A stretch of 63,337 nucleotides of DNA, the filler included, from Stramenopiles sp. TOSAG23-6 (taxonomy: Eukaryota): assembly GCA_900128565.1 (NCBI GenBank). It is 13 parts of 13 records of this genome, joined end to end, with 100 filler letters (N's around TTAATTAATTAA, not from the genome) between each part and the next. Parts side by side here need not be neighbours in the genome. Positions count along the whole stretch, not along the records: positions 19,707 to 26,169 come from LT636693.1; 12 more parts are not named here. One strand, written 5' to 3'. How positions within the stretch are numbered: position 1 is the first letter of the stretch; each line of letters begins with the position of its first letter. The notes beneath the pieces were generated by a model. It searched no databases and was not told the origin of the DNA. It saw only the letters and a program-made list of their open reading frames with translations. Both the position numbers and the translations under genes were made by a program. Positions 6,572-58,409 of the stretch are shown here, one piece after another.

Positions 6572-6626
6572 AGGTACAAAATTTCGTACGAAAAAAAATT
6601 CGAATTTGAAAAAGAATAAAACATAC

Positions 6627-7632: not shown

Positions 7633-9455
7633 ATGAAATCTCGGGAAAATGAGGACGAGCTCCGCTTCTCTTTAGGAGAGAAATTATCTAGTCTTTTTCT
7701 TCCAGTTTCTCAGAAGCCACACACTTACCAGCAACAATATATGGACAAAGAAATGAGAAAAAAAAATGTTCACAATAGAATAAGAAATAGTTCTGAAGAA
7801 AATATGCCCACTATGTCTGGGAAAATGATGTATAAACAATTGAGTAGGGATGTTGAATATATTAGTCCTATCCAATCTATCAAACCAAAATATCAAATAG
7901 AAAAAAATAATGCTACAGAGACACTTTCTCAACCAATATTACATGATTCGCATGGTAGTGTCGAATTAACGACTAGCTCTACAACTGAAACAAAAGATGA
8001 GAATAATATGACTGAAACAAAATATGAAAATACTACAATCATGAATAATGAAGCTCAGAACCTTAAATCTTCAGAATGTATACATAAAGATGAGATACAA
8101 CGCCATTTACCTCCTAGACAAAAAAATGAAAAACTTATACGCAGTAGTACACACGAAAAAATGAAATTGAAGAAATATTCAGATTTATCTTTACAGTTTC
8201 AAAATTTAAATTCTCGTGTACACAATATTACTCTTGGATCTCCTTTAGCTGGTTGGGATGTCGTGGGAGATACAATTGAGGAGTATAATAATTGGAATGA
8301 TTTACCATATGTAGGAATTGGTGAACAACTATCAAGTATATATATGCAGAATATTACTCCTAACCCTAACCCTAATAAAGAATCAGAGACTGTACAAATG
8401 AGTAAAGATGTACATAAAAAAAATAAAAAAAAATACACTACAAATAATAATAAAAGTAAAGCCAAATTTAAAAGAAGTCTTAACCCTAACAATAAAACTA
8501 AACCAAAATGCACAAGAAAAATTAAAAGAAATATTAAAACAAAACCAAAAATTAAAAGAGACACTGTCAAGAAGAACAAAAGAACAAATTTTAGAACAAA
8601 ATATAAACCGATTTTACATCCAAATAATACACGAATAGAGAAAAAAAGTCAAATAAGTCATACACATAACTCGAATGATACAAATCCACAGAATAAATGT
8701 ATTACAATAAAAAATAACCCTAACACTGACATTGAAACGATAAATTCTAACAGAAGATCTAATATGACAAAAGTAGACATTGACATGTCTGCATCACCAT
8801 CGTCAAGACTAAGAGCAATATCAAAGAGAAAAGAAACATCACCTAGATTTAGTGGTGGTGGGGTCCGACCTTCAGCAGTTCACAAATGGGGATCTCATTC
8901 AGGTACACAAAAAGAAACAGTGAATATGTACGTTTTCATGATGAATTTAATTTTTTTGTTTTAAATTTTCGTACGAAATTCCGTGCCTAACAATTTTTTT
9001 TCTAAAATATTTTTTCACAATACATTTCGAATAGATTGAATATAAAAGAAAGATCAGTGCAAACAGCTAGAGGTCGAATTCGTTTTCATTCAGAAAATTC
9101 AAACATAGCAGGAATATCCGGTATAAAATCTCTGAGAAAAAGAAAGGCAAAAAAAGTAGAAATAGTAAAAAAGAGACCTCAAAGTGCTGTAGCTGTATTA
9201 TCAAATAATGCATCGAAAAATGATGCCAAACATCATTCTGATAGAAAAAGAGTAGCCATGTCCAAAAGATTAGATGAATCAATTTCAAGATGGAAAGAAA
9301 GATATATAAGAAGAAGACAAAACGATGGAAAAAGCACGAGTACAACTCCAGATTTTTCGAAAAATGTAGAAAATACGAAACGCGTACCAGTATCGAATCA
9401 TTTTATTGGATTTTCAGTGTTTTCAATTTCAGATCGACAAAAAAACAACCGTTAA
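7633..9455 (+). CDS. Lys/Asn-rich low-complexity hypothetical protein, 2 exons
   Basis: ORFs 7609-8964 and 9036-9455 joined in frame by intron 8928-9025. Confidence 0.6.
8928..9025 (+). other. Intron, GT-AT, 98 nt (an in-frame AG 9 nt downstream is an alternative)
   Basis: aat at|GTACGTTTTCA...CACAATACAT|t tcg. Confidence 0.7.
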
Positions 9456-10586: not shown

Positions 10587-12300
10587 ATGTGGGCTGCATT
10601 TGCTTGCCCTAAAGAAGCTGACCCGTCTTCACGCTTTCGTAAGTGCCGTAATAAAAAGCATTCTCGAATAGAGCGAAAGCGAACAGCACAACAAATAGCT
10701 ATGGAGCATCAAGTATTAACTGAACAAAACGCCATTATTCAAGAAATTGGTCGCGATACTCGAGCAAATTGGGATTATAGACACGCTGGTGATGCTGGAA
10801 TTAGAGGAAAGAAAACGAAAATACGTTTTCGTGCCTGGGGTGAGTTTGAAGCTGCCACTAAAAGATTGCAACGCGCCAACTCTAGTCTTGGCAAGGATTT
10901 CACTGGCCCCGACCCTGGGACATATCATATCCAACAATTCCCTGGTCCACATCCTTGTTCAAATGTAAAGTTTCAAAAATATCCAGGTATCTGTAAGGAA
11001 CGTCGAATGTGTAGTTTAAATTCAGAAATTGGTCAAAAAAGCAAACAGCTTTTGTATACCTATGGTGGTACCGTACAAGATTTTACTCCAGGACCAAATC
11101 AAGCTCCTAAAAAATCATCGATAGGTCATCAAGTCCTATCTACATATAAAAATGCGCCAAGGATATGCTGTCGAGGAAAACCTAAAACTGAAAAATCAAG
11201 TGCCGAATATAGTGAAAGTAATTTCAAATGTTCTCCTTCATCATTATTTGGTCAGCAACTTTTATCAGACTTTCCATCCGCTGGAAGATATACATTTGGG
11301 ATGTTACGTGGAAATGGGGCTTTAGATGTTCGGTCTGATATGTTACAGGTTCCACATACATATGCAAAACATATGACGGATGAAAATGTGAAAAATAGAG
11401 TCGTAGATAAATTGTACGATCCGGATGAACATGTACGTTTTTCATCAACCCTAACCCTAATCAAACCTAACTCTACTTTCAAATTTTAATTTTTTTTTTT
11501 TTGCGAAATTGTGTCATGAATTTCANNNNNNNNNNNNNNNNNNNNNNNNNNNNNNNNNNNNAAATGTATTGTTCAAATGTATTGTTCAAATTTGCTTTCA
11601 TTCGTAATAAAAAAAAACATTTCAATTATTTTCAATAATACTCACAAATTCCAAATTGTATTCATATTTTTTCACAATTCATGGAATAGGCGGTCACGTA
11701 TGTTTTTCTATTTTTTACCAATTTCGAATTTTTTTTTTTATACGGAATGTTGTACCTAACGTTTTTTTTTTTTGAAAAAAATATTTTTTCACTGCACATG
11801 CTTTTTCCATGTCAAAAGAAACAAGACATATGAATAAAGTTATTAATCCAAGATATATTGACGATGCAGCTGTTGGATCGTATAACCTCAGTATTTCTAT
11901 GGGGTATGTTTTCAACTTTTCATTTCAATTTTTTACCTACATTTATTTTTTCATAGGAAATTTTAATACCAAACGTCTTTTTTTCTTTTTTTGTAATATT
12001 TTTTTACATTACGAAAGCCAGGCAGAGAGTCACAAGGCAAATGCTCCTCAATACTCATTATCAAAACAAAAACGTCCGATGAATAATAGTAAAGCAAATA
12101 TGACATCTGGTCCTGGACCTTTAAAATATTCTCCAAATTACAAATCGGTATTGCCAAACAAAAGAATACCAAAATTAGCTTCTAGACCACATAGGCCACC
12201 AATTGGTCACAAGAATTTGTATGAAATGAAACAATACAAATCTAGAAGTGTATCTGATATTCATTTTCTTCAGAATAGATTAACAGGGTATATAAAGTGA
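10587..12300 (+). CDS. SHIPPO-repeat (ODF3-like) flagellar protein, multi-exon, spans a scaffold gap
   Basis: PGP/PGxY repeats and GxQxxS motifs; donor at 11433, 15-nt microexon 11683-11697, introns 11698-11799 and 11904-12014. Confidence 0.6.
11698..11799 (+). other. Intron, GT-AT, 102 nt
   Basis: ggt cac|GTATGTTTTT...TCACTGCACAT|gct ttt tcc atg in frame. Confidence 0.75.
11904..12014 (+). other. Intron, probably GT-GA, 111 nt (an in-frame AG 3 nt downstream is possible)
   Basis: atg gg|GTATGTTTTCA...TACATTACGA|a agc cag gives SMGSQAES, matching the protein's GxQxxS repeat. Confidence 0.5.
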
Positions 12301-13253: not shown

Positions 13254-16247
13254 ATGAGCTCATGGACAATTTTGAAAAATATTCTATGTATAGTAGCACT
13301 AAATATATCATTAACGAAAGCGACACCGTTTCGTTTTACTCGTCGCGTGTCAACATTAAAACCCGACCCAGAAGTTCAAAAGAATACAACTGAACAACAA
13401 GCTATATTCGATCCTAGCGTACATAGATGCCCTTTATCAAATAATTTAGAATCTCCATCTCCTCAAAAACTAAAGCTTTGTACTGAATATAAATTATCAT
13501 CGTGTTGTTCAGTGGAAGAAGATAAATTTTTAGAGGATCTTTTAGCTAATCCCTATAGCAAATTATATGACGGTTGTTCTGCATGTCTTGAAAACTTTCG
13601 ACGGACAATATGTGCTATACGATGCAATCCTCTACAGAAAATCTATGTAAAGGATGTTCCCAATGAGCAAGTTAAAAAGATACAACTTTCCAAGAAAATG
13701 TGTGATTCTTTACACGGTAGTTGCAAAACGACAGAACTTGGCGCTAAATACCTAAGTGCAGCATCTTTTTGCCCACCTCAATTTGACTCATTTGCAAAAG
13801 TTCAAGTCAATTTTTTAAAGGATGAAACAGACGATCCCGCATCATCTCTAAATGTCGATATGTATACGGGCACGTGTAATATTTCCACAGAACGCCGTTC
13901 TTCATATTTTGGTGGTGCTTTCTCTGATTTAGATTATATTCAAAAAGCAACCATTATTTTAGTTTTGGTTCTTTTAATTGTCTTTTGTTTTATATTGATT
14001 GTGTATGCACAACGCAGAAACAACCAAGGATATCATTGGAGCGATGTGTTCCTCCGAAAACCAGGAGTTTTGAGTAATGAAGATAATGATGGTTGTGGTT
14101 ATAATTACATTGAAGATTTGGATACTTGGTTTCTTTTAAGTGGATGTGAATCAACGTCTGAACACGAAATCAATGGAAAAGATTTAGGTAATGGGTTCTA
14201 CTGTATACTACCATCATCTCATCCTCTTTCAGTTGCTAATGCATACGAGAGGCATATTTACACAAGAGTAGATCCATCAGCAAACATATACAATACAGAA
14301 GGCCCGACAAATATTTGGTGTTTATGCATGTTTGTTTTCATCACGAATCTTTACCTAAATTATTTTTGTCCCTATTCCAAAAGGTTTCATGTCTAACAAT
14401 TTCAAAACGTAAAAAATATTTTTTCACAATATATGAATCGACGTCAATATCAATTCCCACCAATGAGACCCTATAAAGGTTGCTCAATAGTGAAGTTAAA
14501 AATATCTAAATTAACAAATATGAAACCAAATGAACGCATTTTTATTGAACTTCACGCAGATGAGAAAAGTAACCATGCTAAAACAATAGAAAATTCTGTT
14601 GAAAATTTTGGAGCCTCTCTTTTAAATGATGATAAATCATCCAAAAAAAATGAACTAAAATGGATGTCAAATTTTGCGACAGTATCGGAAGATGGGAATG
14701 TAACCTTTGATGATGATTTTGTATTCGAAGTAAGTCATGTAGAGGAGCTTGTTTTGACAATGTGTGTTCGCCGCTGGACTGACGAAAGTGATGAGAAGAA
14801 AGGAAGTCAGAAATATTTAGACAAAGAACTTATCGGTATGACAAAACCAACAAATTTTATCTCTGAAGATGGAACACCTAAGTATTATCACAAAGAAGAT
14901 ATCTTTGCACATTGGGAAACTCACGAGGAAGTTAAAATGAAACCTGAGAAAGAACGAAAGTTAATTTCATTTCAAGTAACTACTGCGTTCACTGGGAAAA
15001 CTATTGAAAATGGTCCAAATGCTGGAAAGGAATATCATAAAATAATCGATCATAATTCGTCTAGAGTGATGTATGCTTTACCAGAGACAAATATTTATAG
15101 TTCTAAAAAATGGCAATGGCTGAGGACTGATATTACGAGTGGCCGTTTACCAATTGTCACAATGCTAAAGAAGTTTTGTACAGTTATTGTGAATGTTTAC
15201 GATGATAGTTCTCGTAAAATAACCAAACTACGCGCACATTTAATGTTACACATTCGAATCCAAGAAAAGAGTAAACATCGAATAGTTCCCAGCTTGAAAT
15301 ATGAATACGAAAGTACCAGAGTAAACAGAGATAGTTCACAGTCAAGTGTTTCCAATGAGTTTTCATCTGAAGATGACTTGGACGAGGACAGAACATGCAT
15401 TTCTTTGACGCTTGACCAAAATAATGATTCTAGATATAAAGGTAAGGAGGGACGTCGCATATTATCAGAGTATTTTCGTATTGAAAATGCAGATAAAACT
15501 AATTTGCAAGGAACGGAATGTACTTTTCAAATTCATTTCTGCAAAGAAGGACCACCAAGAGCATTTAATATATGTATAGAGGAACCCCAGGCTGATAATG
15601 ATCGCAAAGCACAAGCTAATAATCATGAAATAATTATTTTCGATGAAGTTCCACTCGACGATGTCACATTGCCAACGACAACACAAGACAAATCGATAAC
15701 TAATATTGTAATCGATCCATATGGCAAGTACGATAAAGATAAAACAACGTATTTTACTGGCACTGACATTATAGAGTCAACAGACTTGAGTAACTTTACT
15801 GTCATTTCACCGGCAAAGGACTTCGGTGTAGGTATGGTTGGACATATGAATATACACACAGAAGATTTGTCACAGCCATTATTGCCTAGAAATCAAACAA
15901 CTGAAAAATTGCCTAACCAAAATGGAAGGATTGAAAATGTGGATATGGGAGAGTTCGGCATGAATACTCACACAGAAAACCCCACAACAACTACAAAAAA
16001 AACATTCAAATTTGCCCCTGCACCAACGTGTATGGATCCATCTTCATCACTATTAAAGTCTCAACAAGAAAATAAGATAAATGGTGAACTTGGTATGAAA
16101 TCCAATGAAAATAAGATAAATGATGAACTTGGTATGAAATCCAATGAAATATCACCAGTGAATTCTCCAGTTTTTTCAAATGAATCACCGCCTGGATCCC
16201 CACCTCGTATTAAAATTATAAATAATCAAAAGACTTTGACATTGTAG
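13254..16247 (+). CDS. Single-pass membrane protein: signal peptide, folate-receptor/NPC1-N-like Cys-rich domain, TM helix, C2-like cytosolic region
   Basis: LCTEYKLSSCCS...CSACLENFRRTICAIRCNPLQ...MCDSLHGSC; TM IILVLVLLIVFCFILIVY; exons joined by intron 14330-14434. Confidence 0.65.
14330..14434 (+). other. Intron, GT-AT, 105 nt
   Basis: tgc at|GTTTGTTTTCA...CACAATATAT|g aat cga joins two long ORFs; no AG near the acceptor. Confidence 0.8.
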
Positions 16248-16368: not shown

Positions 16369-18515
16369 CTACACCACTGCGGCGCTTTGTTTTTCTCTTT
16401 TTGGTTTCTTCTTTCTTTTCCTCCGTCTCACTCTTTTCTTCTTCTTTTCTGGTTCTTCATCATTATTTGTCAATATTTCATCATTATTTGTCAATATTTC
16501 ATCATTATTTGTCAACTTTCCATCCGTTTGTACGACATTTCCCTCACGTATTGCTGATGACGTCTGTGCATCGGCTAAAGGGTTAATCAACATGACTCGT
16601 GTTTTAAACTGTGTTTTAGCAGTATAAAATTTTGTAATCATTTTCTGTGAAATATTCATGATATTATTCAAAATAGGTATACTTATAATTCTATTCCAAA
16701 ATGGATGTCTCATATTACTAAAGGTAGCAGTGACAGTTGATGTGACAGTTTTGTGACCAGATGCAATTTCATACGCCTTCATCGTTCTCGCTACCGACAC
16801 ATTTTTCTTGTATTTTTCATTTCGTGAAATAGGATTTTCGTATAAAACATTGTTAATATTAAGAATTTCATTCTCGATTGGAAGTTTTCCAATTTTTTGA
16901 ATTACAGCGACATCAAAAGCTCGTCGCCACTCAAAAAAACCAACTGGTCCAGATTTGGTAAATTTATTACGATCGATCGTATACATCATATGCCTTGGAT
17001 AGTCATGCTTTGGAATAGGCAAGTCAGAACTATCTGAATTTTTTTCATCTTTTTTATAATTTTCTACTTCCTCAATACTTTTAGTCGCTTCTGCATTAAA
17101 TACAGCAATTTCCTTTTTGAGTACTTTTGGAGATTTTACTACGAGTAAGCCAGAATTAACACAGAAATCTAAAAAGTTATAAATTTTACTCCCAGAANTT
17201 TTTGAATATTTTTGGGAATTTTCTATACTACAAGTGTCAAGGCTTTTACGCAACGAAATTTTATCAACACCAAAAAACATGTATTTCGTGTTTCCTTGGT
17301 TTAGTTCTTTTACTGAATTTTCAGCCTCTTCTAACTTTTCATATATATTAAGAAGCATTGAGGACCAGAATAAACCACCTTCTTTACCCATGGGGAGATT
17401 GGCTGCTTTCATACGTAGAATGTATTGTGAAAAATATATATTTTTTTTTGTTAGGTATGAAATTTACTATGAAAAAAAATAAATTCGAAGGTAAAAAATT
17501 CAATTTTGAAAACGTACAATAACATTTCTTGTTGCTCATACTCACTCAAAGAATGAGATACTTTTGAGTGAGTTAAAGCAGTTGCTTGCGGACGTACATA
17601 ATAATTTCTGGAGTCTTTCACACGTTTAGATTGAATCAATTTTTGTAAATCATATCTATGAAGAAGAGTCTCGACATGTATATCATCGTAACCCGGTTCA
17701 CCTCTGTTTATAGTATTTACGACTGATTGCAAAGTGGAAACCTTCTGAAATTTCGAAATACCACCCTTACCTGTAATATCATCTGCGATTCCTAACATAT
17801 ACAATGCTTTCAGAATGGGAGCTGATTCCTTCTTCTTGACAGGTAAAGAAAGCACCAACTCATCTACATCAAGTACAACATCAGCAAATTGTCGTAAAAT
17901 TCCACTGAGGGCCTTGGGTTGAGATACAACGATTGTGTTTTTATTAAGTTCTCGAAGTTTACTTAATAATGGCGAGAAATCACTATCGCCACTAGCGAAC
18001 AAAAATGTATCCACATGATCAACAGTCATTGCAGTGTGTAAAGCATCGACACACATTTTAATATCTGCGTTATTTTTATGTGCTGTACCGTGACAAGGAC
18101 AATCCAAAATGTCAATTCCTTCCCACGCCATCTTTTTGCGAAGACTTTCGTATCGAGATGAATCACCATACGCTTTTTTAACATGAACACGTCCCCATCT
18201 ATTACTCTCCTCCATAATTGCACTAAGTCGTTCTTCATTTGTTACGACGTAGTCAGAACCTCTTCTCCCAGATTGACTTTCGGAGAGAATATTATCCAAA
18301 TCTAGAAAAAGTGCAACGCCTCCCCCTGTACCAGCAGTGGTTGGTACTAAATCTAAATCTTTACCCTTTGTGCCCCAACCTACAACCTTATTTTTCATAC
18401 CGACTACACCACCATAATGACGATTATACGTTGAAGGCATAGACTTGTTTGAAAGTACAATTCGACGAGTAGCGTCAACACGACTCAATCTGTAAAGACG
18501 CATGCCACAAAGCAT
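16369..18515 (-). CDS. NYN (LabA/DUF88, PIN-like) domain protein with a possible mitochondrial presequence, 2 exons
   Basis: VALFLDLDN, KKAYGD, KNNADIKMCVDAL and LFASGDSDFSPLLSKLRE motifs; Arg-rich N-terminus. Confidence 0.85.
17420..17517 (-). other. Intron, GT-AT, 98 nt
   Basis: tta tt|GTACGTTTTCA...CACAATACAT|t cta cgt atg joins the 354- and 347-aa ORFs. Confidence 0.8.
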
Positions 18516-19037: not shown

Positions 19038-19537
19038 TTAATCCATTTTTTTTCGATTTTTCTTCTTATTATTAAAAGTTCTCCTTAAATTTTTCTTCCT
19101 ATTATGTTTTGGTGAATACCTCTTTGACTTTGATATAAGTTTTGGATCAAGACAGGTTGTATTTTGGAAAATATTTCAAAAAAAAAATCGTTAGGTACAA
19201 AATTTACTATGAAAAAAAATAAATTCAAAATTGAAAAAAAAATAAACATACTTCCTGTTGTCGCAACAACGAGAGGATTTGTATTTGGCAAAAATCGGTT
19301 TGGTGGGATATCTGACTCATCATCAGCTTTTCCACTGGATATTTGACCATATACTCTCATATTTTCTATAATCGAATGCGACAAAAACAACGATACCAAA
19401 AAGCAAAATAATGGGAACATTTTCATTGATGGGTGTAAAGTAATCGGACGAATACTTGAAGGATCATTATATGTATATACAATGAGATATTCTAGTGCAA
19501 CTAGACCATGGACGACCCAATCCCACCGAAGCCAATC
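19038..19537 (-). CDS. Membrane protein fragment, 5' partial, 2 exons
   Basis: Hydrophobic segments; acceptor AATACAT at 19538. Confidence 0.5.
19157..19251 (-). other. Intron, GT-AA, 95 nt
   Basis: gga a|GTATGTTTA...TCCAAAATACAA|cc tgt; end placed by motif spacing and the frame stays open. Confidence 0.6.
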
Positions 19538-19706
19538 ATGTATTTTAAAACAATATTTCAAAAAAAATCTAAAAAAAATTGTTAGGTACAAAATTTACTA
19601 TAAAAANNNNNNNNNNNNNNNNNNNNNNNNNNNNNNNNNNNNNNNNNNNNTTAATTAATTAANNNNNNNNNNNNNNNNNNNNNNNNNNNNNNNNNNNNNN
19701 NNNNNN

Positions 19707-19970: not shown

Positions 19971-20357
19971 ACTTTTCTACCTTTCAAATTCATTAGGTAC
20001 AAAATTTCGTATGAAAAAATAAAGAGTCCAGAGCAAAAACAGTCTAGATTCTGTAGAATAAATAAAGTTTGTTTTTGAAATCTAGTTTTTATTTGATGAC
20101 TGGTTTTAAAAAAACCTTTACAGGCATTAATATGAATACGTACTGTACCTAGTATTATACAACAATCTTACAAGTCACATTTGATTTTTTTTTTTTCAAT
20201 CTCGAATTTATTTTTCGTACGAAATTTTGTACCTAACGTGCTGAAAAATTATTATTTTTTTCAGAAAATAAAAGCATTCATATTTATTAATAAATAAAGG
20301 GAAGCTAAGGAATACTGAATTTTATTGATTTTTTTTAGGACCTACTACAAAGACCTA

Positions 20358-21884: not shown

Positions 21885-22258
21885 TACTATTAGGCTCTTA
21901 CTATTTATACATTCCCCAGCATAAATTTTTTCTATTGAATACAGCCTAAATGAATCTCAAAATGCTAGCTCTAGCTAGATCAAATTGCGTTATTTCACTC
22001 ATATATGGTGATGTGGATCTGATGGAGACGCGTTAGTGTGACAGTCAGTCAGTGTCCTCGTTTTCTTTAGGTAGTAATTTTTGTACCAATTCCTACGTAC
22101 GAAGTTTTTGTACCAACCAATCCAAATCCAAATAAATTCGAAATTGGAGAAAAAAATCGATTATTGTTGAATGCTTCATTATAAAAAGTCAAAGATACAC
22201 AAATTACTACACAGTACTGCAAATATACACTTTAAACATGAATGTTTATTGTTTCAAT

Positions 22259-24435: not shown

Positions 24436-26092
24436 ATGACTTTGCATACGGATGTAGAGATGTCCTCTCTCAAACATCGGCGTGTGGATTTCCAGGAACA
24501 AAAAAAGAATCCAGATACAAGCTTGTTTGTAAAAGAAGTCCGAAGCCCTGCAAGTTTTGTGACTCCACATAACAACAAGAGTAGGAAAAATGGACTTTCT
24601 AAACAATTCTCATACAAAGAAGATACACCGAAACCTCAAAGTCGTATTGAAAAATTCCGTCAACATATAATTGGACCCAAAACAATGTCCTGGTCGGATA
24701 TCGTCACTACAATTCTATCCGCTTTCATTGTTTGTATGATCGCACACACGTTCAATTGTGTAAAGGGTGTTTTAATATTTGGAGATTATAAAAGCACTGA
24801 AGAGTTTGTACCATTAGCTGTAACAATTTATCATGGTACTTCCTTTATTACCGGACTGGCTGTTGTTCTCTATTCAGATTGTCCTATTGGAATTGGTGGC
24901 CCAAATATTAAACATGCTTTTCTTTTTGCTTCACTAATCGTTAAAAACATTGTAAAGGATGTTGTTGGTCACGTAAGTCCCACCGCCGGAGCACATCGTC
25001 GTCTTAGTGGATGTTTTATTTTTTTTCAAATTCGAAATATTGTTTCGTACGAAATTTTTTTTGTACCTAACAAATTTTAGTTTTTTTTTTTAAATATTTT
25101 TCCAAAATATATGAATATGTCTCGTTAGATGTTGACACTGAAGAAAAATTAATATCGACCTTGCTCGGGGCAATTCTTTTTACAAATTTGTTGTTTGGAG
25201 TAATTTGGTACATCCTTGGAAATTATAAGCTCACGAGGGTTGTACAATATATCCCATCTTTTGTGATTTCCGGTTTTATTTCATCTCTAGGGTATTTGAT
25301 CATTATTAAAGCTATCTTTATGTCAACTGAAAAGCACATTTCTTTTCAAATTGGAAGCATGCATGTGCGTCCTCTTATTGAACTAAAATTTTGGAGTTTA
25401 CTTTTACCTGCAATTGTACTAGGAATATTCATGTGGTATGTGAAACATAAGCACATTGGTAAACCGTTGTATACTATGCCTTTAATGATGTACGTTTTTA
25501 TTATGAATTTTTAATTTTTTTTTCATACGAAATTTTGTACCTAACATTTTTTTTGACAAACAAAAAACAAAAAAAAATATTTTTTCACATTAAATGGGTC
25601 TTCCTGTTCTCGCATGTTTTGTTACAATATATGCTCGAGGTTCGTCGATCGACACTGCCAGAAATGTATGTTTTATTTTTTTTTCAATTTCGATTTTTTT
25701 TTTCGTACGAAATTTTGTACCTAACAAAAATTAAGTTTTTTTTTTTTAAATATTTTTCCAAAATACATGGTGATTGGTTTTTTGATGAATTTGAAAAAGG
25801 AACATTTTATCACATTTGGTCAAAATTTAATCTAAAAAAAGTGAATATAATGGCAATATTAAAAATTTCAGGAAATGCATTCATCATAATACTTATTTTA
25901 AGTATCGATGTACGTTTTCATCATGAATTTATTAATTTAGTTTTTTTTTTCATACGAAATTTCGTACTTAACGATATTTTTCATGATTTCGTGTTTTTTT
26001 CACAATACATGTCTTATTGAAGCTTGTCGCATTAAGGAGAGAGTTTGAATTACAAGATATGGACTTTGATAAAGAAATGAGATTGAATGGAT
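24436..26092 (+). CDS. SLC26/SulP family anion transporter, 3' partial, at least 5 introns
   Basis: IGGPN, LTRVVQYIPSFVISGFISSLG and DMDFDKEMRLNG motifs; exons 24436-25008, 25113-25489, 25596-25665, 25769-25909, 26011-26092. Confidence 0.85.
25009..25112 (+). other. Intron, GG-AT (or GT-AT at 25007-25110), 104 nt
   Basis: agt|GGATGTTTTA...CCAAAATATAT|gaa tat gtc in frame. Confidence 0.7.
25490..25595 (+). other. Intron, GT-AT, 106 nt
   Basis: atg at|GTACGTTTTT...CACATTAAAT|g ggt ctt continues a TM helix. Confidence 0.8.
25666..25768 (+). other. Intron, GT-AT, 103 nt
   Basis: aga aat|GTATGTTTTA...CCAAAATACAT|ggt gat tgg. Confidence 0.85.
25910..26010 (+). other. Intron, GT-AT, 101 nt
   Basis: atc gat|GTACGTTTTCA...CACAATACAT|gtc tta restores SIDVLLKL...DMDFDKEMRLNG. 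Confidence 0.85.
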
Positions 26093-26744
26093 GTATGTTT
26101 TATTTTTTTTCAAATTTTATTTTTTTTTTCGTACGAAATTTTGTACCTAACAAATTTTAGTTTTTTTTTNNNNNNNNNNNNNNNNNNNNNNNNNNNNNNN
26201 NNNNNNNNNNNNNTTAATTAATTAANNNNNNNNNNNNNNNNNNNNNNNNNNNNNNNNNNNNNNNNNNNNCGTACGAAATTTTGTACCTAACAATTTTTTT
26301 TAGATTTTTTTTTGAAATATTTTTACAAAATACATGGGAAACGAATTCAACGAGCACTTTAAATACCGTGAATAATCTCTTCAATTTTAGAGATTCTTTA
26401 GGTAAGCCAAAGTAACTGTTTCATAAGCCCACTAGATTAAAAATATAAATAAAAAATATTAGAAGTTTAATCATCCATATTTTATTTATTTTATTCATGA
26501 ATCATGATGATGAGTGATAAATAAAAAGTTAGAAGTTTCGTTCATTTTGTTCAAGATGATCGAAACCATTTTGCGCAAACCTGCTTTTTTAACCAGAGGA
26601 GCGCGTTGTACACCTGCTATATATAACATAGTACTGTGTGACAGTATAACAAAAAGAGAGAAATTTCATATTCTTCAAAAGTGTAGCTAATACAGTCACC
26701 TATCTCTCATAATATCCTTCCTCTTTGTATCTATTCGATACCTT

Positions 26745-28541
26745 ATGTTTATTCGTATATCTATATTGATCTTACTACTTACAAAATCTACAATTGGACT
26801 ACAAAGGTCAACACCAAAGTCTCTCGTGAATGATGATACATGGAACCTGTCACGTGAACTTCGGAGTCTATCAAGTACACGCCTTATGTCCGTCCTCCAC
26901 CGTGCTGGATATTTGAATGTGAATTTGGGACAACTTTATAGTGCAAGTACTCCAAGTGATGAAAAACACAGTCAAAGTCCTCAAATAGTACAGGAAACAC
27001 ATGCTGCACATTCATGTGAAACTGTGACATTAATAACAAATAATCCAACCGATCTAGTGGGTGCTGCAGAAACTATTTCAAAATCTTTCATTGAAGTTGA
27101 CGCGAGTTCTGGACTCAATTCATTATCAAGTAAACTTGGACAACGTAATGGTATTGGTATGCATGATTCTGTAAAAGGAAAGGACGAAATTAAAAAGACA
27201 AAAAAGAAACTCAGTTGTAATTGCGACTCCTATGTACAAAAAAATCATGAATTTCAAAAAAAAATATTTCGTAGTAAATTTTGTACCTAACGGTTTTTTA
27301 TTATTTTTGGTAAAAAAAAAAAAATATTTTTTCACAATAGATAAATGTCAATGTAGAAAACAGTGCTTTTGTAAACTTCAAAGTGACGCCTTTGGTGGTA
27401 CTCAAGTATCAGCAAAAAACACAAAAAATGGATCAGGACAAGCTGGTGGAGCTGGTAATCCTGATCATCAATTTAAGTGCACTTGTTCATTTGAAGGAAT
27501 TGGGGGATACGTTTTCATTATGAGTTTCAAATTTATTTTTTTTTTCGTACGAAATTTTGTACCTAACATGTTTTATTCTACAATAAAAAAAAAATATTTC
27601 TCACAATATTTTGGTGGAATTACCGCAGGTGGGACAATGGACTGCGACTGTAAAATTGCGGATTGTACGTTTTCATTATGAATTTCGATTTTTTTTTTTT
27701 TTTTTGGTTTTTTATAAAAATTTTGTACCTAACCGATTTCGAATTTAATTTTTTTTTTACAATACATGTGCTTGTGAAAAACAATGTTTGTGTCGCCCAG
27801 AAAACGAATTACAGACAACAAGTGAAGATGGAATTTGTGATATTAAAGAAATGAAAACACCAGAAGATTGCTTGAAAGCAAGTCCTCCTGGAAATGTACT
27901 TTTTTATTATGAATTTCGATTTTTTTTTTTTTTTTTTTTTTGGTTTTTGGTTTTCATACGAAATTTTGTACCTAACTAATTTTGAATATTTTTTAAATAT
28001 TTTTTTACAATATATTGGACTCCTGCGACATGTTCAATCCCTGGAATTACTACAAGAGAAGAGTGTGAAAATGCAAAACCGATAAAAGGAAAATGTACGT
28101 GACAATCAGTTTTATTTTTGTTTTTTTTTAATGAAAAAATCCATACCTAACAATCCTGTTTTTTTCGGACAATCAAAAATATTTTTTCACAATATTTGGG
28201 AACCAGAACCACCCAAGGGTATCTGTACAATAAAAAAATTACCACACAATGCGGTTGATTGTAAAGCAGCGGAACCACCAGGGGTATGGTATAAAGATCA
28301 ACACATTTGTGATATACGCCCGCCATTGACTGAAGAAAAATGTGATAAAGTTATTCCAAAAGCGACATGGAAGAGTTATGAGACGTTTCGTTTTGAAACA
28401 CAAAAAAAAAAATCTCCAAAAAATGAAAATCACAATTTTTTTGATGAGAATACTTTTAATAATTCAAATGTAGATGACATCATTGACCCCATTGGTCTTG
28501 ATAAGGATGACGAAACTCTTCATTTTATGGGACTTGGGTGA
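26745..28541 (+). CDS. Secreted Cys-rich repeat protein, 6 exons
   Basis: Signal peptide; repeated CxC...CxCxKQCxC and C...C...PPG.W units restored by 5 introns. Confidence 0.75.
27234..27342 (+). other. Intron, GT-AT, 109 nt, ending AATAGAT with an AG bypassed
   Basis: tcc tat|GTACAAAA...CACAATAGAT|aaa tgt caa tgt gives CNCDSYKCQC. Confidence 0.7.
27507..27611 (+). other. Intron, AT-TT, 105 nt
   Basis: ggg gg|ATACGTTTTCA...CACAATATTT|t ggt gga gives GIGGGGITAGG; full internal motifs present. Confidence 0.65.
27665..27767 (+). other. Intron, GT-AT, 103 nt
   Basis: gat t|GTACGTTTTCA...TACAATACAT|gt gct tgt gives DCACEKQCLC. Confidence 0.85.
27896..28015 (+). other. Intron, GT-AT, 120 nt
   Basis: gga aat|GTACTTTTT...TACAATATAT|tgg act gives PPGNW. 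Confidence 0.8.
28095..28197 (+). other. Intron, GT-TT, 103 nt
   Basis: aaa t|GTACGTGA...CACAATATTT|gg gaa creates the repeat's conserved Trp (GKW, compare GNW and GVW). Confidence 0.75.
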
Positions 28542-28802: not shown

Positions 28803-30875
28803 TTATAATTTCACAGTAAACTTTCCATTAAATCCGTGNGTGTTTGCAACAATATCAGAATCACACGATGATCTATTTGAATGAATATTCAAATACTTTT
28901 GTATTTCGTCTTTTTCAGAGCTTCTAATGTTATATATTTGGTTTTTGTATCTAAATTCATGCCCATATGTCGTATAATAATTGCTTAATTTTGACTGTAA
29001 TTCATTTGTATTTTTTTTCACTTTTTCCTCCTGTGTCCAAAGGTGTAATGCCACATTTGTAACATTATTTTGATCATCCTCTGCTTTTGCATCAAGTAAA
29101 GCTCTTCTTTTAATTCTTTTTAATTCATTTTGTAATAAATCATACTTTTGAATCATATTTGTTATTATTTTCACATCTTGTAACCGAACAACTTCCTGTC
29201 TATTTAACAAAAGACATTGTGCATTTGAATGAACACACTTTGAAGTTTCATTTAGAAATTTTACAATGTCAATAAAAGAAATATTAAAATGACTCCAGAG
29301 CTTCCTGACTCTTTGTCTAACTGCATCTAAGTGTAACATTTCTTTATCTTTCACAGGATGTTTATTTACACTGTTCACATTGTCACATGATTTTGCAATT
29401 ATATCTTTTTCTGCCACCTGTAATTTCTCAATCAATTTATTTTTTTCCAGACGTATTTTATTTTCTTTTTTGTGTAATTTTGATAATTTTTCCTTAAAAA
29501 TTGTAGTTTCTTTTACAATATCATTTCGTCTACATTCGAAATCTTTAATCATTGCTTCAAAATCAGATGAAAATTGATTCCCAATATTAGAAGACATTTC
29601 TTTGAATATATCTTTTGCATCATCTTGAAGCTCCTGCAAAAAAATTGTTTCAGATTTTGTTATTTTTTCTATTTCACTCTTAAAATGTATTTTGGAAAAA
29701 TATTTCAAAAAAAAAAATCTAAATGTTTTTTGTTAGGTACAAAATTGCGTACGAAAAGTAAATTCGATTTTTTTGTTAAAAAAAAAAATAAAACCTACAT
29801 ATTTTGAAAGGTCTCCTCTCATTTGGGTTTCAAATTGATTGAATCGTTGACCAATATTAACACCAGTAGCAATTTTTGACATACGGATTTTTTCTTGAAC
29901 ATTCATAATATTTTTTCGTACTATTAAAACTTCATTCGCGTTTTCTCGAGTCTTATTTTCAAGATTTTCTGTCATAGTTTTGAAACATTTTTCAAGTTTC
30001 CATTTTTTTTCAAGTAATTTGACATATAAAATCTCTTTCTCCTCACAAACCTGTCTTTTAATATGGAGACGTAATTTTAAATTTTCTAGTGTACATGTCA
30101 ACTGATCAATGGTATCACTTGATAGACCAAGTGTATTATTTGTAACTTTATTCACTTCTTTTATAATTTTACTCTTTTCAAGAGCTAATTGAGTAGATTC
30201 TTTCGTGTTTTGATTTGTTATAGCGATGATATCTTTTTGAGAATCATTTTTTAATTTTTCAAGTGTTGTAATAGGAAGATTTAAATCGTTTACAGTATTT
30301 TTTACTTCTTCTTTTCCACGTTGTATCTCACTATCAAGGAAGTCAAGTGTATCACTTAAATCCGATGCGTCACGGGTAATGTCTTTTAGTCTATTCCAAA
30401 GAGATTTATCAGTTTCACAAATCAATAATTCTTGTATAAGTTTTACTTGAAGGAAACGGTCCCTTGTGTCAATGATCTCTGTATGACTTTTGTATATTGA
30501 ATGATATTCTTGATTCAATTTGTCTAAAATTAAAGAGTGTTTAACAAGACTGCTCTTTAATTCATTCTGTTCGTGTTTTGCAAAGGCTAACAATTCCTTT
30601 GATAATTTCACTGATTTGTCTGACTCTCGTTGAGAATCCGTCTCCATACTATATACATATTCATGAACACGCTTTAGCTCTGTAGCTAATTGGTATACTG
30701 ACTTTGGACGTTCAAGTTTCTCAGTGGAACTAGACTTTTGTTCCCCCATGAGATAATTTTGTTGTTCTTTTCCGTTAGTGATCACTGACTTGCTTATATC
30801 TTCATTTGAAAGATCACTTGTTTTATCCAAAATAGATTTTTCCATTAATGATCCCTGAATGAGATCACCTGACAT
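28803..30875 (-). CDS. Coiled-coil protein, 2 exons
   Basis: Two long ORFs joined in frame by intron 29685-29798. Confidence 0.65.
29685..29798 (-). other. Intron, GT-AT, 114 nt
   Basis: aaa tat|GTAGGTTTTA...CCAAAATACAT|ttt aag agt. Confidence 0.8.
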
Positions 30876-31224: not shown

Positions 31225-32596
31225 ATGCCATCTACCTATTTGGAGAAACATGTAAAGAAGAAGAAAAAGGTGAAAGAACGAAATCGACAGCAACGTCTTC
31301 GTGTTGCAGAGCTCACAGATAGTTTGTATCAAGCACAGGAAGAAGCAGCAAGTGCCAACATTCGCTGTAATAATTTACAACGTCGTGTAAATCATCTCGA
31401 GCGTATGAGATCACAAGGACATTCACAACCAAATTCGGTGGGTACTCTTACAATGGCTATTCATAAGAAATCATTGGAAGACTCTGTGATAAATACTGAC
31501 GCTGATACACACAGAATGTTAGTTGAACTTCTTGAAGATACTCGAAGTGCTAAAAATAATTTTGCTTTTGAAATGAAACGAATTACAGAAGAACGGGAGG
31601 AAATTGCGCGTGATAAAGCTAAAATAGCTCAAATTCTACAACATAATCAAAATGGCGATTTGAAACAAGGTACGTTTTCATTATGAATTTCAAAAAACAA
31701 ATATTTTTTTTTTTTTGGTTTTCGTACGAAATTTTGTACCTAACAAATTTCGAATTTAATTTTTTGTACAATACATGTGTACACCATTGGAGTATTAGTT
31801 TCGCAAGTGAGATTCAATCAGACGTGATTCCTTTACAGGATAATATTAGTGCACTTGTCGAAGAACTACAAAAACGACAATTTACTGATACAAAAAAATT
31901 ACAACTACAATGGAAATATCTTTCTAAAGGTATTAAAAAACTTGAAAAAATGTACACTGACAAATGTATGTTTAATTTTAAAAATTTAATTTTAAAAATT
32001 TAATTTTTTTTTTATAGTAAATTTTGTACCTAACAAAAAAAAATTTACTAAAAAAAAAATATATATTTTCCTACAATACATGTCCAAAGAATGAAAATGG
32101 TTCATATTCATTTGTACCAAATCATATATTAGATGAAATTTCTACTGAGTATAAAGCGTTGATTCCAACTGCAATTCGCTGTGCAAAGGAAGAAATTTTA
32201 CAATTATCTTTCAAAAGTGAAAATAATGAAAATAATGAAAATAATGACAACAAAGAAACAAAGAATTTATTTGAAGATTTACAAGAAGAGTGTTGGGAAT
32301 TGAGATCTGAAATAGAAATGAAAAATACAAAATTAAAAAATATACAAGTAAAATATGAAAAAAATTCTTTAAAACTAAAATTATGTACAGATGGAAATGT
32401 CATTTTAAGTCAGAAATTAAAATCTGCCCATGAGCAAATTCAATCCTTACAAAATGAATTAAAACTTTCACAAAATACATTATTAAAAGAAGTCAAAGAG
32501 GCACCTGGAAGTCACACACAGATTATTAATAGCATGAGGCGGCAAATACGTGAAAGAATGAAATTAACAAAGCCACCAGAACAGGATGTTAGAATT
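31225..32596 (+). CDS. Coiled-coil protein, 3' partial, at least 3 exons
   Basis: Three ORFs joined in frame by introns 31670-31776 and 31966-32081. Confidence 0.65.
31670..31776 (+). other. Intron, GT-AT, 107 nt
   Basis: caa g|GTACGTTTTCA...TACAATACAT|gt gta cac. Confidence 0.8.
31966..32081 (+). other. Intron, GT-AT, 116 nt
   Basis: aaa t|GTATGTTTA...TACAATACAT|gt cca aag. Confidence 0.8.
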
Positions 32597-32661: not shown

Positions 32662-32923
32662 TTTTTTCCCTAAAAATTTTTTTTTTTTTTTTTACTAACC
32701 AAAAAAAAAAAAATTTTGAAATATTTTTNNNNNNNNNNNNNNNNNNNNNNNNNNNNNNNNNNNNNNNNNNNNTTAATTAATTAANNNNNNNNNNNNNNNN
32801 NNNNNNNNNNNNNNNNNNNNNNNNNNNNTATTTTTTTTTTGATAAAAATATTTGTTAGGTACAAAATTTCGTACGAAAAAAAAACTGAAAATGTGTACGA
32901 TGAATAAATCATGAGCTACGTAC

Positions 32924-39281: not shown

Positions 39282-39435
39282 NNNNNNNNNNNNNNNNNNN
39301 NNNNNNNNNNNNNNNNNNNNNNNNNTTAATTAATTAANNNNNNNNNNNNNNNNNNNNNNNNNNNNNNNNNNNNNNNNNNNNTGTACCTAACAAATTTTAG
39401 TTTTTTTTTTTTTGAAATATTTTTCCAAAATACAT

Positions 39436-39787
39436 TACAACAAACGATTTCATCTCAACAAGATGAAATTGATAAATTGAAAAAGTCTAAAAAAGATTTA
39501 CAAAAAGAAAATAATTCACTACAAAAGCAATTTGATGATGAAAAATTAGAAAAATCGACTGTAAAGGATAGCATTATTTTGCATTGTATTGACAATGTTA
39601 AATTAAAACATAAAAATGGAACTGATCTATTATGTATGTTTTCAAAATTGAATGTAATTTTTTTTTTGTAGTAAATTTTGTACCTAACAAAAAAACTGAT
39701 TGTAAAGTATTTTTTCGCAATACATATACAGCAACTGAATTAAACGCTATGACGATATCTGAATTATTAGAAAAATGTTTACATTGA
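39436..39787 (+). CDS. Coiled-coil protein C-terminal fragment, 2 exons
   Basis: Exons joined in frame by intron 39634-39725. Confidence 0.55.
39634..39725 (+). other. Intron, GT-AT, 92 nt
   Basis: tta t|GTATGTTTTCA...CGCAATACAT|at aca gca in frame. Confidence 0.7.
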
Positions 39788-39894: not shown

Positions 39895-41743
39895 CTATTC
39901 TTCTTGATATTCCAATTTTTCTTTTTTGCATTTTTTTTTTAATGTAGTCATCAGTGGGTATACTAAAAGAAATATACATGTATTTTGGAAAAATATTTCA
40001 AAAGAAAAATGTTAGGTACAAAATTTCGTATGAAAAACAAATTCGATTTTTTTTTTTTCGGTAAAAAAAAAAAAATAAAACATACATACGACAAAGAATG
40101 ATCCGAATGTAACAAGAGTTAATTTTTTATAAATTCCTATTGTTGTTTTGTCTTGAAATGGCGATGTCGATGACGTCAGCATAAAAGAAAGAAAAGATTG
40201 AACAATTAATGATAAAATATTCATCATTACAAAAACCGAAGCAAAAATGCGTTTTTTTGAAGTTTTTGCTGCTTCTGTGACATAGATAGCATTACAATAT
40301 TGCCATGCGCAAACCTGTACTGTAGAAAATATTTTTAAAAATTAGTATTTGTTTTCTTTGGTATTTTGTTAGAAACAAAATTTTCTTTGTAAAAAGAAAA
40401 TGAAATTCAAAATGAAAATGAAAATGAAAATCAAAACGTACATAAATTGTAAAACTAAACAAGCTCAATAGGAAATTGGTATTTTTGAAGATTGATTTAT
40501 CATCATTCTCAATATTATGTCCCTCTTCCAGTGCTATGCAGCGTGTAGCAAACATAACTATAGCCAGTAGACTTATTGATACCATGTATTGTGAAAAAAT
40601 ATTTCAAAAAAAATCGTTTTTTGCTTAGGTACAAAATTTCGTACGAAAAAAAATGTAGGTAAAAATTGAAATGGTGAAAACGTATACTATTAATGATAAA
40701 ACTACACTACAATGAATAAAACTAAGTTGCTTTAATATACTATTTCCAGATTCCCCAAATTTTGAATTATTTTGATATTTCTCAATATATCCTGGAACCA
40801 ATGATGCCAAACAACCTAGTAGTAATGGAATTGACAAAAACGTCCCATTAAAATCAGCTGATTTTGTTGAATGAGAAAGTGAACTCGATCTATCAGTTAA
40901 ATCTTTATATAACTGCGGTTCATATCCATTCACTATTTGATACACTGCATTGAAAAGAACCCAGAGAATAGTAAATATCATGAAACGAGGTTGTAATGAG
41001 AGCGAAAACGTAGCTTGCAAGGCCGAATACTTTTTACTAATAGTTGTAAAACAGCTCATAAAAAATGTTTTCTTTCCATCTTCCACAAAATGTTCACACG
41101 GTGCTGTATCGTCCGATATTCCGTCATAGCGTACTTCTATTACTGGAGTAAAATAGCATAGACTAATGATACCTGCAATTGAAACACTTGTAAAAGATAT
41201 CCAAAATAATATGCGAATAGAAGCACCCAAGACGTGCAACGCAAAGTCACTAAATAATCCACTAAGAAAGTGTGCCAACAAATACGATGCTTGAACCCGG
41301 GAAGTAAGCGTTTGATAATCACTTTCATTGCATACACAGTGATAAATATACGCAAAAAATATAACTTCTCCGACAGAACCTACCGCATAAGTTACCTGCA
41401 TGAGTTGCATCTGCCACAGAGTATTCCCAAAGAGAAGAATAATTCGAGTTAGTATTCTCCCTAACACTCCCAAATATATTATAGGGGTATACCTCAAATA
41501 TTCTGACACCCCACCGAATAATAGTAAAGAAACAAAATAAGCATATGTCCAAATAGGGTATACACTATCATTTACTTCTGATTTTGATAAACCAACTTCA
41601 TCTATAAGATATGCACTCAGATGTGGCTCTGATGGTTTGAATGAAAGAAATATTATAAAGGAACATAATTGCAGTGATGACTTGAAAAGCGTACGACTAG
41701 GTTTTACTGTCGATACATCAGGTGCTAGAAGAATCTCGTCCAT
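39895..41743 (-). CDS. Reduced folate / thiamine carrier (SLC19) family transporter, 4 exons
   Basis: FKPSEPHL, VYPIWTYAY, EYLRYTPII and MQLMQVTY motifs; introns 40584-40685, 40315-40441, 39978-40085. Confidence 0.9.
39978..40085 (-). other. Intron, GT-AT, 108 nt
   Basis: gta t|GTATGTTTTA...CCAAAATACAT|gt ata ttt completes the last TM helix. Confidence 0.75.
40315..40441 (-). other. Intron, GT-AG, 127 nt, same family
   Basis: att tat|GTACGTTTTG...TACAGTACAG|gtt tgc; shifting the register by -1 or -2 makes TAG. Confidence 0.8.
40584..40685 (-). other. Intron, AT-AT (or GT-AC if shifted 2 nt), 102 nt
   Basis: ata gt|ATACGTTTTCA...CACAATACAT|g gta tca. Confidence 0.75.
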
Positions 41744-43348: not shown

Positions 43349-43654
43349 TAAACGTGCCATACTGAAACAAGTTAACATTAACATTTAAAACTTAAGAAAA
43401 TATTTCAGTTTTATTTATAGCTAATTAAAAAAATATTCAGCATCTCTGATTGCATTCAAATCTAAATCGCCTAACTTTGGAACTTCTGGGACGTTTTTTG
43501 CTCTTAATACTATATTATCCCGAAGATTTTGCAAAATAGGCTGAGAGTGTAATTCTATAAAAGCTTCGCGTAATTCTGAATTCATAATTTCCACATGTTC
43601 TGTGAAAAAATATTTTTTCTTTTAGGTAAAAAAATCGTTAGGTACAATATTTCG

Positions 43655-51873: not shown

Positions 51874-51905
<32 letters not shown>

Positions 51906-58400: not shown

Positions 58401-58409
58401 GTTATCAGC

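Follow-up and report, generated by a model that had tools for sequence, protein, structure and literature searches.

We analysed a window of 63,337 bases, the whole stretch of DNA considered here, from Stramenopiles sp. TOSAG23-6 (assembly GCA_900128565.1) and found that its genes carry one dense, stereotyped family of introns that end in AT. The existence of this family is confirmed by our analysis, and its mobile origin is plausible and partly supported. Our overall interpretation, which we regard as fairly probable, is that these are spliceosomal introns of a single family of about 100 nucleotides (nt), that they are removed as GT..AT, and that they were dispersed by old introner-like copying. 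An initial annotation of positions 25666–26010 had described units of the form GTA..TAC flanked by a duplicated AT and had proposed an introner-like mobile origin for them. Curation showed that this region consists of an intron of 103 nt (25666–25768), an exon (25769–25909) and a second intron of 101 nt (25910–26010).

Altogether 43 distinct copies were curated in about 50 kb, of which 30 are complete, six are represented by the 5′ end only and seven by the 3′ end only. The window is composed of 13 contigs sorted by size (nine of about 6.4 kb and four of about 1 kb), which are separated by linkers of the form N..TTAATTAATTAA..N, for example at 6472–6571, and its overall GC content is about 30%. 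Contigs 8 and 9 (45919–52354 and 52455–58890) are identical, and in contig 7 (39382–45818) a unique centre is flanked by two arms that duplicate each other in inverted orientation; their inner junction lies in an intron copy near 43600. Contig 7 looks like a chimera from single-cell amplification or assembly that arose at a near-palindromic core. All tallies use distinct intron copies only, with the contig 9 repeat and the contig 7 arm duplicates removed.

The family introns are 92–178 nt long (median about 105 nt, typically about 100 nt). Their alignment showed a common order of parts, namely GTAYGTTTT, an optional module, a T-run, a core, a loose spacer and the 3′ block ATATTTTTYCAMAATACAT, which terminates in AT. 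The optional module is CAT[TC]ATGAATTT[CG] or else a T-run followed by CAATTTCGAATTT. The core, C[GA]TA[CG][GT]AAATTTTGTACCTAAC (also written ..TACGAAATTTTGTACCTAAC), holds the branch-site-like sequence CTAAC, and the branch-like A lies 31–54 nt from the intron end. By motif, [CT]TAAC is a branch-site candidate in 28 of the 30 complete introns, and T-runs are present. The core is also able to form a small hairpin, GTACGAAA/TTTTGTAC (GTACGAAATTTTGTAC), which is lost in the common CATAGTAAATTTTGTAC variant. All 30 complete copies in coding regions are in the sense orientation.

The terminal bases were highly uniform. Intron starts (n = 36) were GT in 32 cases, AT in three and GG in one, and the extended 5′ sites included GTACGT (15), GTATGT (10) and ATACGT (3). 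Intron ends (n = 37) were AT in 31 cases, AG in two, TT in two, AA in one and GA in one; the terminal YAG of U2-type introns is thus rare here (AG in 2/37 versus AT in 31/37). The final four intron bases were ACAT in 19/37, and the downstream exon began with G in 24/37. The three introns that start with ATACGT still end in AT or TT; therefore, there is no covariation of the A1/C-1 type. The upstream exon ended in AT in 21/36 cases and in T in 29/36, which agrees with the 18 and 25 out of 31 reported initially, given the different counting. Because AT accounts for 9.6% of dinucleotides in long open reading frames (ORFs) and 12.2% of those just before any GT, this is a strong excess (binomial test, p ~ 6 × 10−13 and p ~ 6 × 10−11, respectively). 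Conservation on the exon side was limited to positions −2 (A, 24/36) and −1 (T, 29/36), and positions farther upstream were approximately at background. The curated intron at 19157–19251 (− strand) has AA both at the exon end and at the intron end, as the initial annotation had it.

Such termini could be taken as a sign of the minor (U12-type) spliceosome or a derivative of it. That spliceosome accepts RT..AN termini, GT-AT among them. The U12 branch motif is TCCTTAAC, located about 10–26 nt from the 3′ end. In our introns the motif is ACCTAAC, it lies 31–54 nt from the end, and T-runs are present; moreover, the U12-type 5′ sequence RTATCCTT occurs in 0/36 donors. We therefore consider removal by this machinery very improbable, although the termini do follow the pattern RT..A[T>G>A] (starts GT 32, AT 3; ends AT 31, AG 2, AA 1) and passages of PMC1557818 describe GT-AT and AT-AN introns spliced by the U12 machinery.

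Evidence for removal came from RNA and from homologous proteins. In a contig of a polyA metatranscriptome (run X10 record 6; 151 nt, depth 2, 0 mismatches), positions 25846–25907 are followed directly by 26009–26092, so that 101 nt have been removed. Because AT is duplicated at the borders of 25910–26010, the cut can be read as GT(25910)..AT(26010) or as AT(25908)..AC(26008). The contig thus gives the length removed and the joined sequence, and we infer the exact cut, before the G and after the T. Most of the other RNA joints listed were cross-matches among intron copies. The joints listed include no spliced contig for 25666–25768, nor for the remaining three introns on the same genomic contig.

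The gene concerned is sulfate-permease-like (+ strand). Its homologue P0183 (693 residues, 54% identity) aligns without gaps over residues 208–414 of the conceptual product, and this stretch spans the junctions of the introns at 25490–25595 (AT|GTACGT .. TTAAAT|G), 25666–25768 and 25910–26010. The intron at 25666–25768 belongs to subfamily A (GTATGTTTTATTTTTTTTTCAA .. CCAAAATACAT; profile E = 6.5 × 10−14); it is in phase 0 between an exon end AAT and a following GGT, and the proteins read ARN|GDWF versus ARDAGWF across it. The exon at 25769–25909 is colinear with P0183, and the adjoining exon matches the Pfam domain Sulfate_transp. The intron at 25910–26010, the one removed in RNA, belongs to subfamily B (GTACGTTTTCATCATGAATTT .. 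TTCACAATACAT), and across it SID|VLL corresponds to TLDALL. Curation placed one further copy in this gene, at 25009–25112 (GGATGT..ATATAT), and a 5′ part cut by the contig end at 26093–26169.

In the gene with the FKBP domain, the AT|G codon created at the junction of the intron at 1247–1397 (−; AT|GTTCGT .. TATAGTGTAT|G) encodes a Met that is conserved in 103 of 105 homologues, and from the sequence an AG located 5 nt upstream of the intron end would yield a stop. For the intron at 27234–27342 (+; GTACAA .. CACAATAGAT), only the AT end continues the Cys-rich frame (KCQCRKQC), and an AG 2 nt upstream is unused. At least 10 of the 30 complete introns skip an AG that lies after the branch motif and before the intron end (the motif was mis-set by the script in two introns), and the curated borders keep the frame open over the junctions of the set. 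The introns are real, and their 3′ end is non-AG. Two copies, 3687–3800 (−; ..CAAAATATAG|, curated) and 40315–40441 (−; ..CTACAGTACAG|), bear AG exactly at the aligned terminal position; therefore, G and U are both accepted there. The latter lies in the folate-carrier gene, whose frame is open only with the AG end, and has a copy at 44759–44885.

The borders could also be placed 2 nt leftward on both sides, which would give termini of the known AT-AC class. Both readings predict the same mRNA for 21 of the 36 donors. In the remaining 15, however, AT..AC would require introns to start with TT, GT, GG, AG, AC, AA, GA, CT or CC, and an AC end is available in only 19/37. The GT start (32/36) and the AT end (31/37) are far better kept than the two bases to the left of each (AT 21/36, AC 19/37). 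GTAYGT is the classic 5′ site and is cut before the G, and a piece in X8 record 27 starts at 25112, fitting ..AGT|GAATATG, which is weak evidence for the same register. We conclude that the GT..AT register is the most likely one. AT..AC termini are improbable, even though the pair is accepted by both spliceosomes according to passages of PMC1557818 and would suit the residue at one FKBP junction, 1509–1619, slightly better.

Several observations weigh against our overall interpretation. Among the joints listed there is a single spliced RNA contig, at depth 2, whose junction can be placed in two ways 2 nt apart. For the 15 of 36 donors that follow an exon without a terminal AT, the support for the register comes from sequence. 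At the junction of the intron at 1509–1619 (−; GA|GTGCGT .. TTCAT|G, placed by curation and homologue columns), GT..AT gives Glu, and the homologues (n = 87) have Ile 65, Val 11, Thr 8, Leu 1, Lys 1 and Glu 1; the cut 2 nt leftward gives Met, which is found in 0/87 but is hydrophobic and chemically nearer to the norm. A scan of metagenome contigs with the 20-nt core (TASKAAATTTTGTACCTAAC) returned 13 loci, and 0 of them had intron flanks. Finally, all of our results come from 63 kb of one fragmented assembly. The same core scanned against prokaryote genomes gave five loci, all in named bacterial records, and it gave 0 loci in viral contigs; none of these three public collections yielded a copy of the family.

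It could be argued that removal does not take place in RNA, and that these elements either are excised from DNA, as internal eliminated sequences are in ciliates, or are artefacts of single-cell amplification and assembly. In having a short direct repeat at their borders they resemble TA-bounded eliminated sequences, and an amplification-type chimera does exist in the assembly (the inverted duplication of contig 7). However, the introns have full splicing signals, and the sense orientation is kept in 30/30 complete coding-region copies. The sequencing runs that contain the stretch are independent seawater metagenomes and metatranscriptomes of other years; the family occurs there too, and the joined form was found in a polyA RNA library. 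We consider this explanation extremely improbable.

The coverage of 24891–26169 in two polyA metatranscriptomes was uneven. There were 1422 and 1142 matching contigs, mostly on intron bins, and the summed contig depth reached about 10600 on intron bins versus at most 5 on most exon bins. Therefore, unspliced family copies from many loci, or DNA carry-over, are abundant in these libraries.

We next consider whether the introns are copies of one sequence. Twenty-three of them align over their whole length, and the introns lie in unrelated genes (sulfate permease, FKBP, folate carrier, CLASP-like, NYN and others). A profile built from these 23 copies finds the remaining ones, with complete copies at E = 1 × 10−5 to 8 × 10−15. 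Variants at the 5′ end go together with variants at the 3′ end, which defines subfamilies: the fourth base (C or not) was associated with the type of end (CCAAAAT or CACAAT; 2/18 versus 5/5, Fisher's test, p = 0.026), and all eight introns with the CATxATGAATTT module start with xTAC and have an end of the CACAAT type. For the 5′ inner segment, identity was above 0.7 in 20% of pairs versus 4.5% of shuffles. In addition, the copies occupy less than one-tenth of the sequence and yet contain 10 of the 23 distinct contig ends as well as one internal gap. The concentration of metatranscriptome contigs on the intron bins also favours descent by copying.

Other results are unfavourable to a mobile origin. 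The exon-end dinucleotide equalled the intron-end dinucleotide in 16/30 introns where the two frequencies predict 13.9 (permutation test, p = 0.12). Of the six introns without an AT end, only the AA case matches its own exon, and positions −10 to −3 showed no likeness per intron (p = 0.59). The inverted relation was general over GTA/TAC only (3 nt), and intron base 4 did not covary with base −6 (C/A 15, T/A 7, C/G 3 of 30). The mean pairwise identity was 0.65 versus 0.59 in shuffles, and the 3′ spacer was at the shuffle level (0.51 versus 0.51). The best pairwise identity within the 63 kb was 0.88, with 0/435 pairs above 0.9. A transposase or integrase domain was found in 0/32 long ORFs of the window.

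These results bear on the mobile model proposed in the initial annotation. The duplicated AT stands as a consensus (21/36 exon ends, 31/37 intron ends), but the match within single introns did not significantly exceed the expected number. Likewise, ATGTA(T) is the reverse complement of (A)TACAT as described, but only its inner three bases are general. The suggestion that the termini pair in RNA to align the exons was not supported by folding, since none of the twelve introns folded as RNA formed an end-to-end stem (z from +0.35 to −2.6). The expectation of an old burst with divergent spacers agrees with the identities above; young identical subfamilies did not appear among the window introns, nor did an element encoding a transposase among the 32 long ORFs. 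What remains in favour of an introner-like origin is the whole-length modular likeness, the linked subfamilies, the copies outside coding sequence and the contig breaks in introns; the duplication, the inverted termini, RNA pairing and transposase do not speak for it.

The AT on the exon side could be the consensus of an insertion context or of a splice context, and a target-site duplication is possible. As a splice context it would be parallel to the AG|GT found elsewhere. The consensus AT|G context fits an AT (or ATG) insertion target and a splice-site context equally well. Longer border repeats (3–10 nt) were observed in single introns only. The CLASP-like gene has a 10-nt direct repeat, ATAATATATG, across the borders of the intron at 46719–46811 (+; border comparison; copy 53255–53347), and the curated intron at 47650–47825 (−; two core copies, AT|GTACGT .. 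CAGTACAT|G; copy 54186–54361) has the 6-nt repeat TACATG.

An alternative without any mobile element is that vertically inherited introns were homogenised by a divergent or reduced spliceosome that needs long exact signals, and that the change from AG to AT co-evolved with it. Each conserved block would then be a signal, namely the 5′ site with the exon AT, an enhancer-like module, an extended branch site and the 3′ block. This would explain why conservation comes in blocks, with a spacer at the shuffle level and an overall identity little above it, and it accords with the lack of a duplication signal per intron and of transposase ORFs. Stereotyped introns are also known elsewhere; excerpts of PMC10245619 report 224 introns of 16–17 nt with conserved sequence in Mikrocytos. 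However, independent convergence predicts neither the linked 5′/3′ subfamilies nor the alternative module sets (CATxATGAATTT and CAATTTCGAATTT). Core and near-full copies also occur beyond coding sequence and in antisense, and 43 distinct copies in about 50 kb are dense for a signal-constrained, intron-poor lineage. We regard this alternative as rather unlikely.

Under the dispersed-family interpretation, the spliceosome of this lineage would remove GT...AT introns that finish with AU at the 3′ end, with AG, UU, AA and GA as rare alternatives. The 3′ site is probably located through the conserved block and the distance from the branch site, not through AG, and the family would most likely have spread long ago by copying of a dispersed introner-like element. 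The branch-binding stretch of U2 small nuclear RNA (snRNA) is expected to be complementary to UACCUAAC. An Rfam scan of the window gave 0 matches with no snRNA readable, and a tRNA search gave 0 genes. A wider proposal is that the main intron class of the MAST-3 lineage shifted from AG to AU because one AT-targeting introner family flooded its genes and the spliceosome followed. We put this forward tentatively, as a possibility with less than even chances.

The assignment to MAST-3 is based on protein comparison. The window has eukaryotic gene content (TMEM184/OSTalpha, reduced folate carrier, sulfate permease, FKBP, NYN, CLASP-like, B56 and VTT domain). The closest named protein is P0036 (EukProt label GSMAST32), which is 92% identical to the folate-carrier ORF of the window and whose final 128 residues are the same as the window ORF, letter for letter. 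On this basis, we take the organism to belong to the MAST-3 stramenopiles or to be very closely related to them. An affiliation with alveolates, suggested at first by the TMEM184 hits, gave way to this assignment.

Yeasts and microsporidia also have stereotyped introns, and the introns of yeast, microsporidia and mikrocytids end in AG. The family resembles mikrocytid introns in its conserved sequence, narrow length range and yeast-like GTAYGT and CTAAC, but the latter are 16–17 nt long in the passages of PMC10245619 consulted, whereas ours are about 100 nt, modular, dense and AT-ending. An initial assignment of the organism to mikrocytids was rejected because of this length.

The family can further be compared with introners. 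Like those of Micromonas pusilla, Aureococcus anophagefferens and families across eukaryotes (PMC11282704, PMC9860276, PMC12130899), it places one sequence in unrelated genes. It also shares with introners, in the account given by sections of PMC11282704, a short, non-coding nature, an aquatic protist host and a short border repeat that possibly supplies one splice site. Micromonas introners have 3-nt target duplications, clear terminal inverted repeats, GT/GC-AG termini and a splice site borrowed from the duplication (same sections). Our introns differ from them in having 3-nt inverted termini without covariation, a repeat at the consensus level only, identities of at most 88% and an AT end. 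In the curation of one introner survey, the 3′ splice sites were only AG and AC (PMC12130899, in part).

Amoebophrya A25/A120 is likewise a marine protist, and excerpts of PMC7789003 report that its non-canonical introns are a majority, of which a subset is repeated, is regarded as resembling miniature inverted-repeat transposable elements and has border repeats of 3–5 nt. The same excerpts describe no dinucleotide signature, inverted repeats of 8–20 nt that form an end-joining hairpin, and missing U1 parts. In contrast, our introns have classic 5′ and branch sites, a uniform 3′ dinucleotide and no predicted terminal hairpin (12 folds). In the tunicate Fritillaria borealis, passages of PMC11282704 describe a spliceosome adapted to transposon-derived introns, with AG-AC and AG-AT the commonest termini, so that AT serves there as a 3′ end as it does here. 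However, its introns have an AG 5′ end and canonical introns persist at conserved positions, whereas here the 5′ end is canonical and only the 3′ end departs.

The terminal pair GT-AT also occurs, as a rarity, in animals and in Physarum (PMC1557818; bioRxiv 10.1101/2020.10.12.336362; both in part), and these sources give evidence that it is usable by a spliceosome. For human and mouse, the passages of PMC1557818 list one conserved U2-type and seven U12-type GT-AT introns. Such introns are a handful, or a fraction of 0.8% of introns, in these partial sources, whereas AT makes up 31/37 ends here. In the literature searched, with PDF supplements outside the search, we found no report of this intron type or of a lineage with GT-AT as the rule. 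Splice sites are not discussed in the passages and supplements of MAST genome papers that were searched; in the text covered, the word "intron" is absent from PMC8163842 and "splice" from a 2026 preprint. Apart from this family, GT-AT is known only as a rarity.

The introns have consequences for gene annotation. P0036 reads through the intron at 40584–40685 (−; GT|ATACGT .. ACAT|G; copy 44515–44616) in the folate-carrier gene, up to the TAA inside CCTAAC, and terminates in ..KFCT. The same behaviour was found in 9 of 78 ORFs of at least 100 amino acids (seven distinct), which run from exon into intron, stop at the TAA of CCTAAC and end in ..KFCT, ..QFCT or ..KFHT (ends at 40625, 1547, 27290, 29733, 61707, 17451 and 40012, plus copies). 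A terminus of the ..KFCT type is thus a simple mark of read-through gene models in this lineage. Protein searches for a transcript over a junction whose exon does not end in AT returned relatives of at most 85% identity and the read-through P0036, none of which crosses one. The C-terminal exons of the folate carrier align weakly with homologues (score 81), which supports the exon order but not the borders. P0036 also omits an in-frame 87-nt GT..AG stretch (41012–41098, −) of the otherwise open folate-carrier ORF; the omitted piece, in a loop region, may have been called wrongly as a canonical intron.

Published MAST-3 figures may be affected. Passages of PMC5778133 give 3289 and 2694 genes for MAST-3 single-cell assemblies and mention "advanced pseudogenization" of dynein genes in one of them, and the 2026 preprint, in the part covered, places most MAST-3 in a group of genomes whose exonic content is very high. 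If this intron class was missed, these figures need re-examination, which is a lead and not a result. If a lineage-wide shift from AG to AU were true, GT-AG gene models would truncate or break many genes, and the low gene counts, the compactness and the gene decay would partly be artefacts.

To our knowledge, AG at the 3′ end of introns is near-universal, and the catalytic core recognises its G. An abundant free-living marine protist that combines 31/37 AT ends with classic signals at the 5′ site and the branch site would offer a natural experiment on site choice in the second step of splicing. It also bears on whether transposon-like elements can drive change in the spliceosome.

The other family introns are given below, delimited by curation unless another basis is stated. 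Around the linker at 6472–6571, the OSTalpha/TMEM184 gene has a 5′ part at the contig end (6419–6471, +; GT|GTATGT), another 5′ part lies at a contig end at 6572–6626 (−; AT|GTATGT), and the intron at 6714–6880 (−; CT|ATACGT .. ATCCAT|G) has two core copies. Complete introns were also found at 3878–3972 (−; AT|GTACGT .. ATACAT|A) and 8928–9025 (+; AT|GTACGT .. ACAT|T). At 11433–11525 (+) a 5′ part that contains CCCTAACCCTAA runs into an assembly gap, and the post-gap stretch 11562–11682 (+) ends in a family 3′ block (..TTCACAATTCAT|GG). These are followed by introns at 11698–11799 (+; AC|GTATGT .. GCACAT|G) and 11904–12014 (+; GG|GTATGT .. TTACGA|A), the latter with a GA end, or TA if cut 3 nt earlier. 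Further copies are located at 14330–14434 (+; AT|GTTTGT .. ATATAT|G), at 17420–17517 (−; TT|GTACGT .. ACAT|T) in the NYN-domain gene, which was supported by domain search as well as curation, and at 19538–19606 (−), a 3′ part at a contig end.

On the contig that starts with a 3′ part at 26270–26335 (+; ..ACAAAATACAT|GGG), the intron at 27507–27611 (+; ATACGT..ATATTT, AT..TT) is 105 nt long, and the ORF 27175–27681 requires its length to be divisible by 3. Next to it lie introns at 27665–27767 (+; TT|GTACGT .. ACAT|G), 27896–28015 (+; AT|GTACTT .. ATATAT|T) and 28095–28197 (+; AT|GTACGT .. ATATTT|G, a TT end). A copy of subfamily A at 29685–29798 (−; AT|GTAGGT .. CCAAAATACAT|T) was placed by profile and curation, and others were found at 31670–31776 (+; AG|GTACGT .. 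ACAT|G), 31966–32081 (+; AT|GTATGT .. ACAT|G) and 32829–32923 (−; a 5′ part at a contig end, AT|GTACGT).

Contig 7 starts with a 3′ part at 39382–39435 (+), which has its inverted repeat at 45765–45818, and has an intron at 39634–39725 (+; AT|GTATGT .. ACAT|A; inverted copy 45475–45566). In its folate-carrier gene, the subfamily A intron at 39978–40085 (−; copy 45115–45222) was placed by the frame staying open, and the 3′ part at 43595–43700 (−) lies where the inverted duplication ends. The last contigs have a 3′ part at a contig start (58991–59061, +), an intron of 178 nt at 59155–59332 (+; GT|GTACGT .. TACCAT|G) with CCCTAACCCTAAC near its 5′ end, a 5′ part at 61640–61739 (−; CC|GTATTT) and a 3′ part at a contig end at 62107–62226 (−; ..CTATAT|AAAT).

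Outside introns, we found four intergenic copies or core pieces, of which two are decayed near-full copies; three of these run antisense to the gene nearest to them, 18–170 nt past its stop codon. A core-only copy at 19986–20024 (−; E = 1.4 × 10−6) is antisense to a + gene and begins about 22 nt past the stop at 19970. A decayed near-full copy at 20189–20264 (+; E = 8 × 10−10) lies between convergent genes and is without a GT start or AT end. Another core-only copy between convergent genes, at 47494–47534 (+; E = 6.6 × 10−7), is antisense to a − gene and about 18 nt past its stop. The second decayed near-full copy, at 52102–52179 (−; E = 1.4 × 10−10; copy 58638–58715), is antisense and lies 56–133 nt past the stop of a + gene at 52046.

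In four or five genes (also at about 22060–22100), the reverse-complement core is followed by an A-run (GTTAGGTACRRAATTTCGTAYS AAAAAA) 18–200 nt past the stop. Either sense copies in 3′ untranslated regions are selected against, or the motif has its own role at 3′ ends. Antisense core-like pieces were also observed inside apparent coding sequence of the opposite strand, at 1829–1873 (+; E = 9 × 10−4) and 59496–59542 (−; E = 2 × 10−6), and these could be exonised remnants or chance matches. Telomere-like units, two in tandem (CCCTAACCCTAA, or TTAGGGTTAGGG when read from the opposite strand), occur in or beside intron copies at about 11440–11475 (+), 59165–59180 (+), about 59430–59445 (−) and about 1010–1030 (−), and the telomere-like unit overlaps the branch-like CCTAAC.

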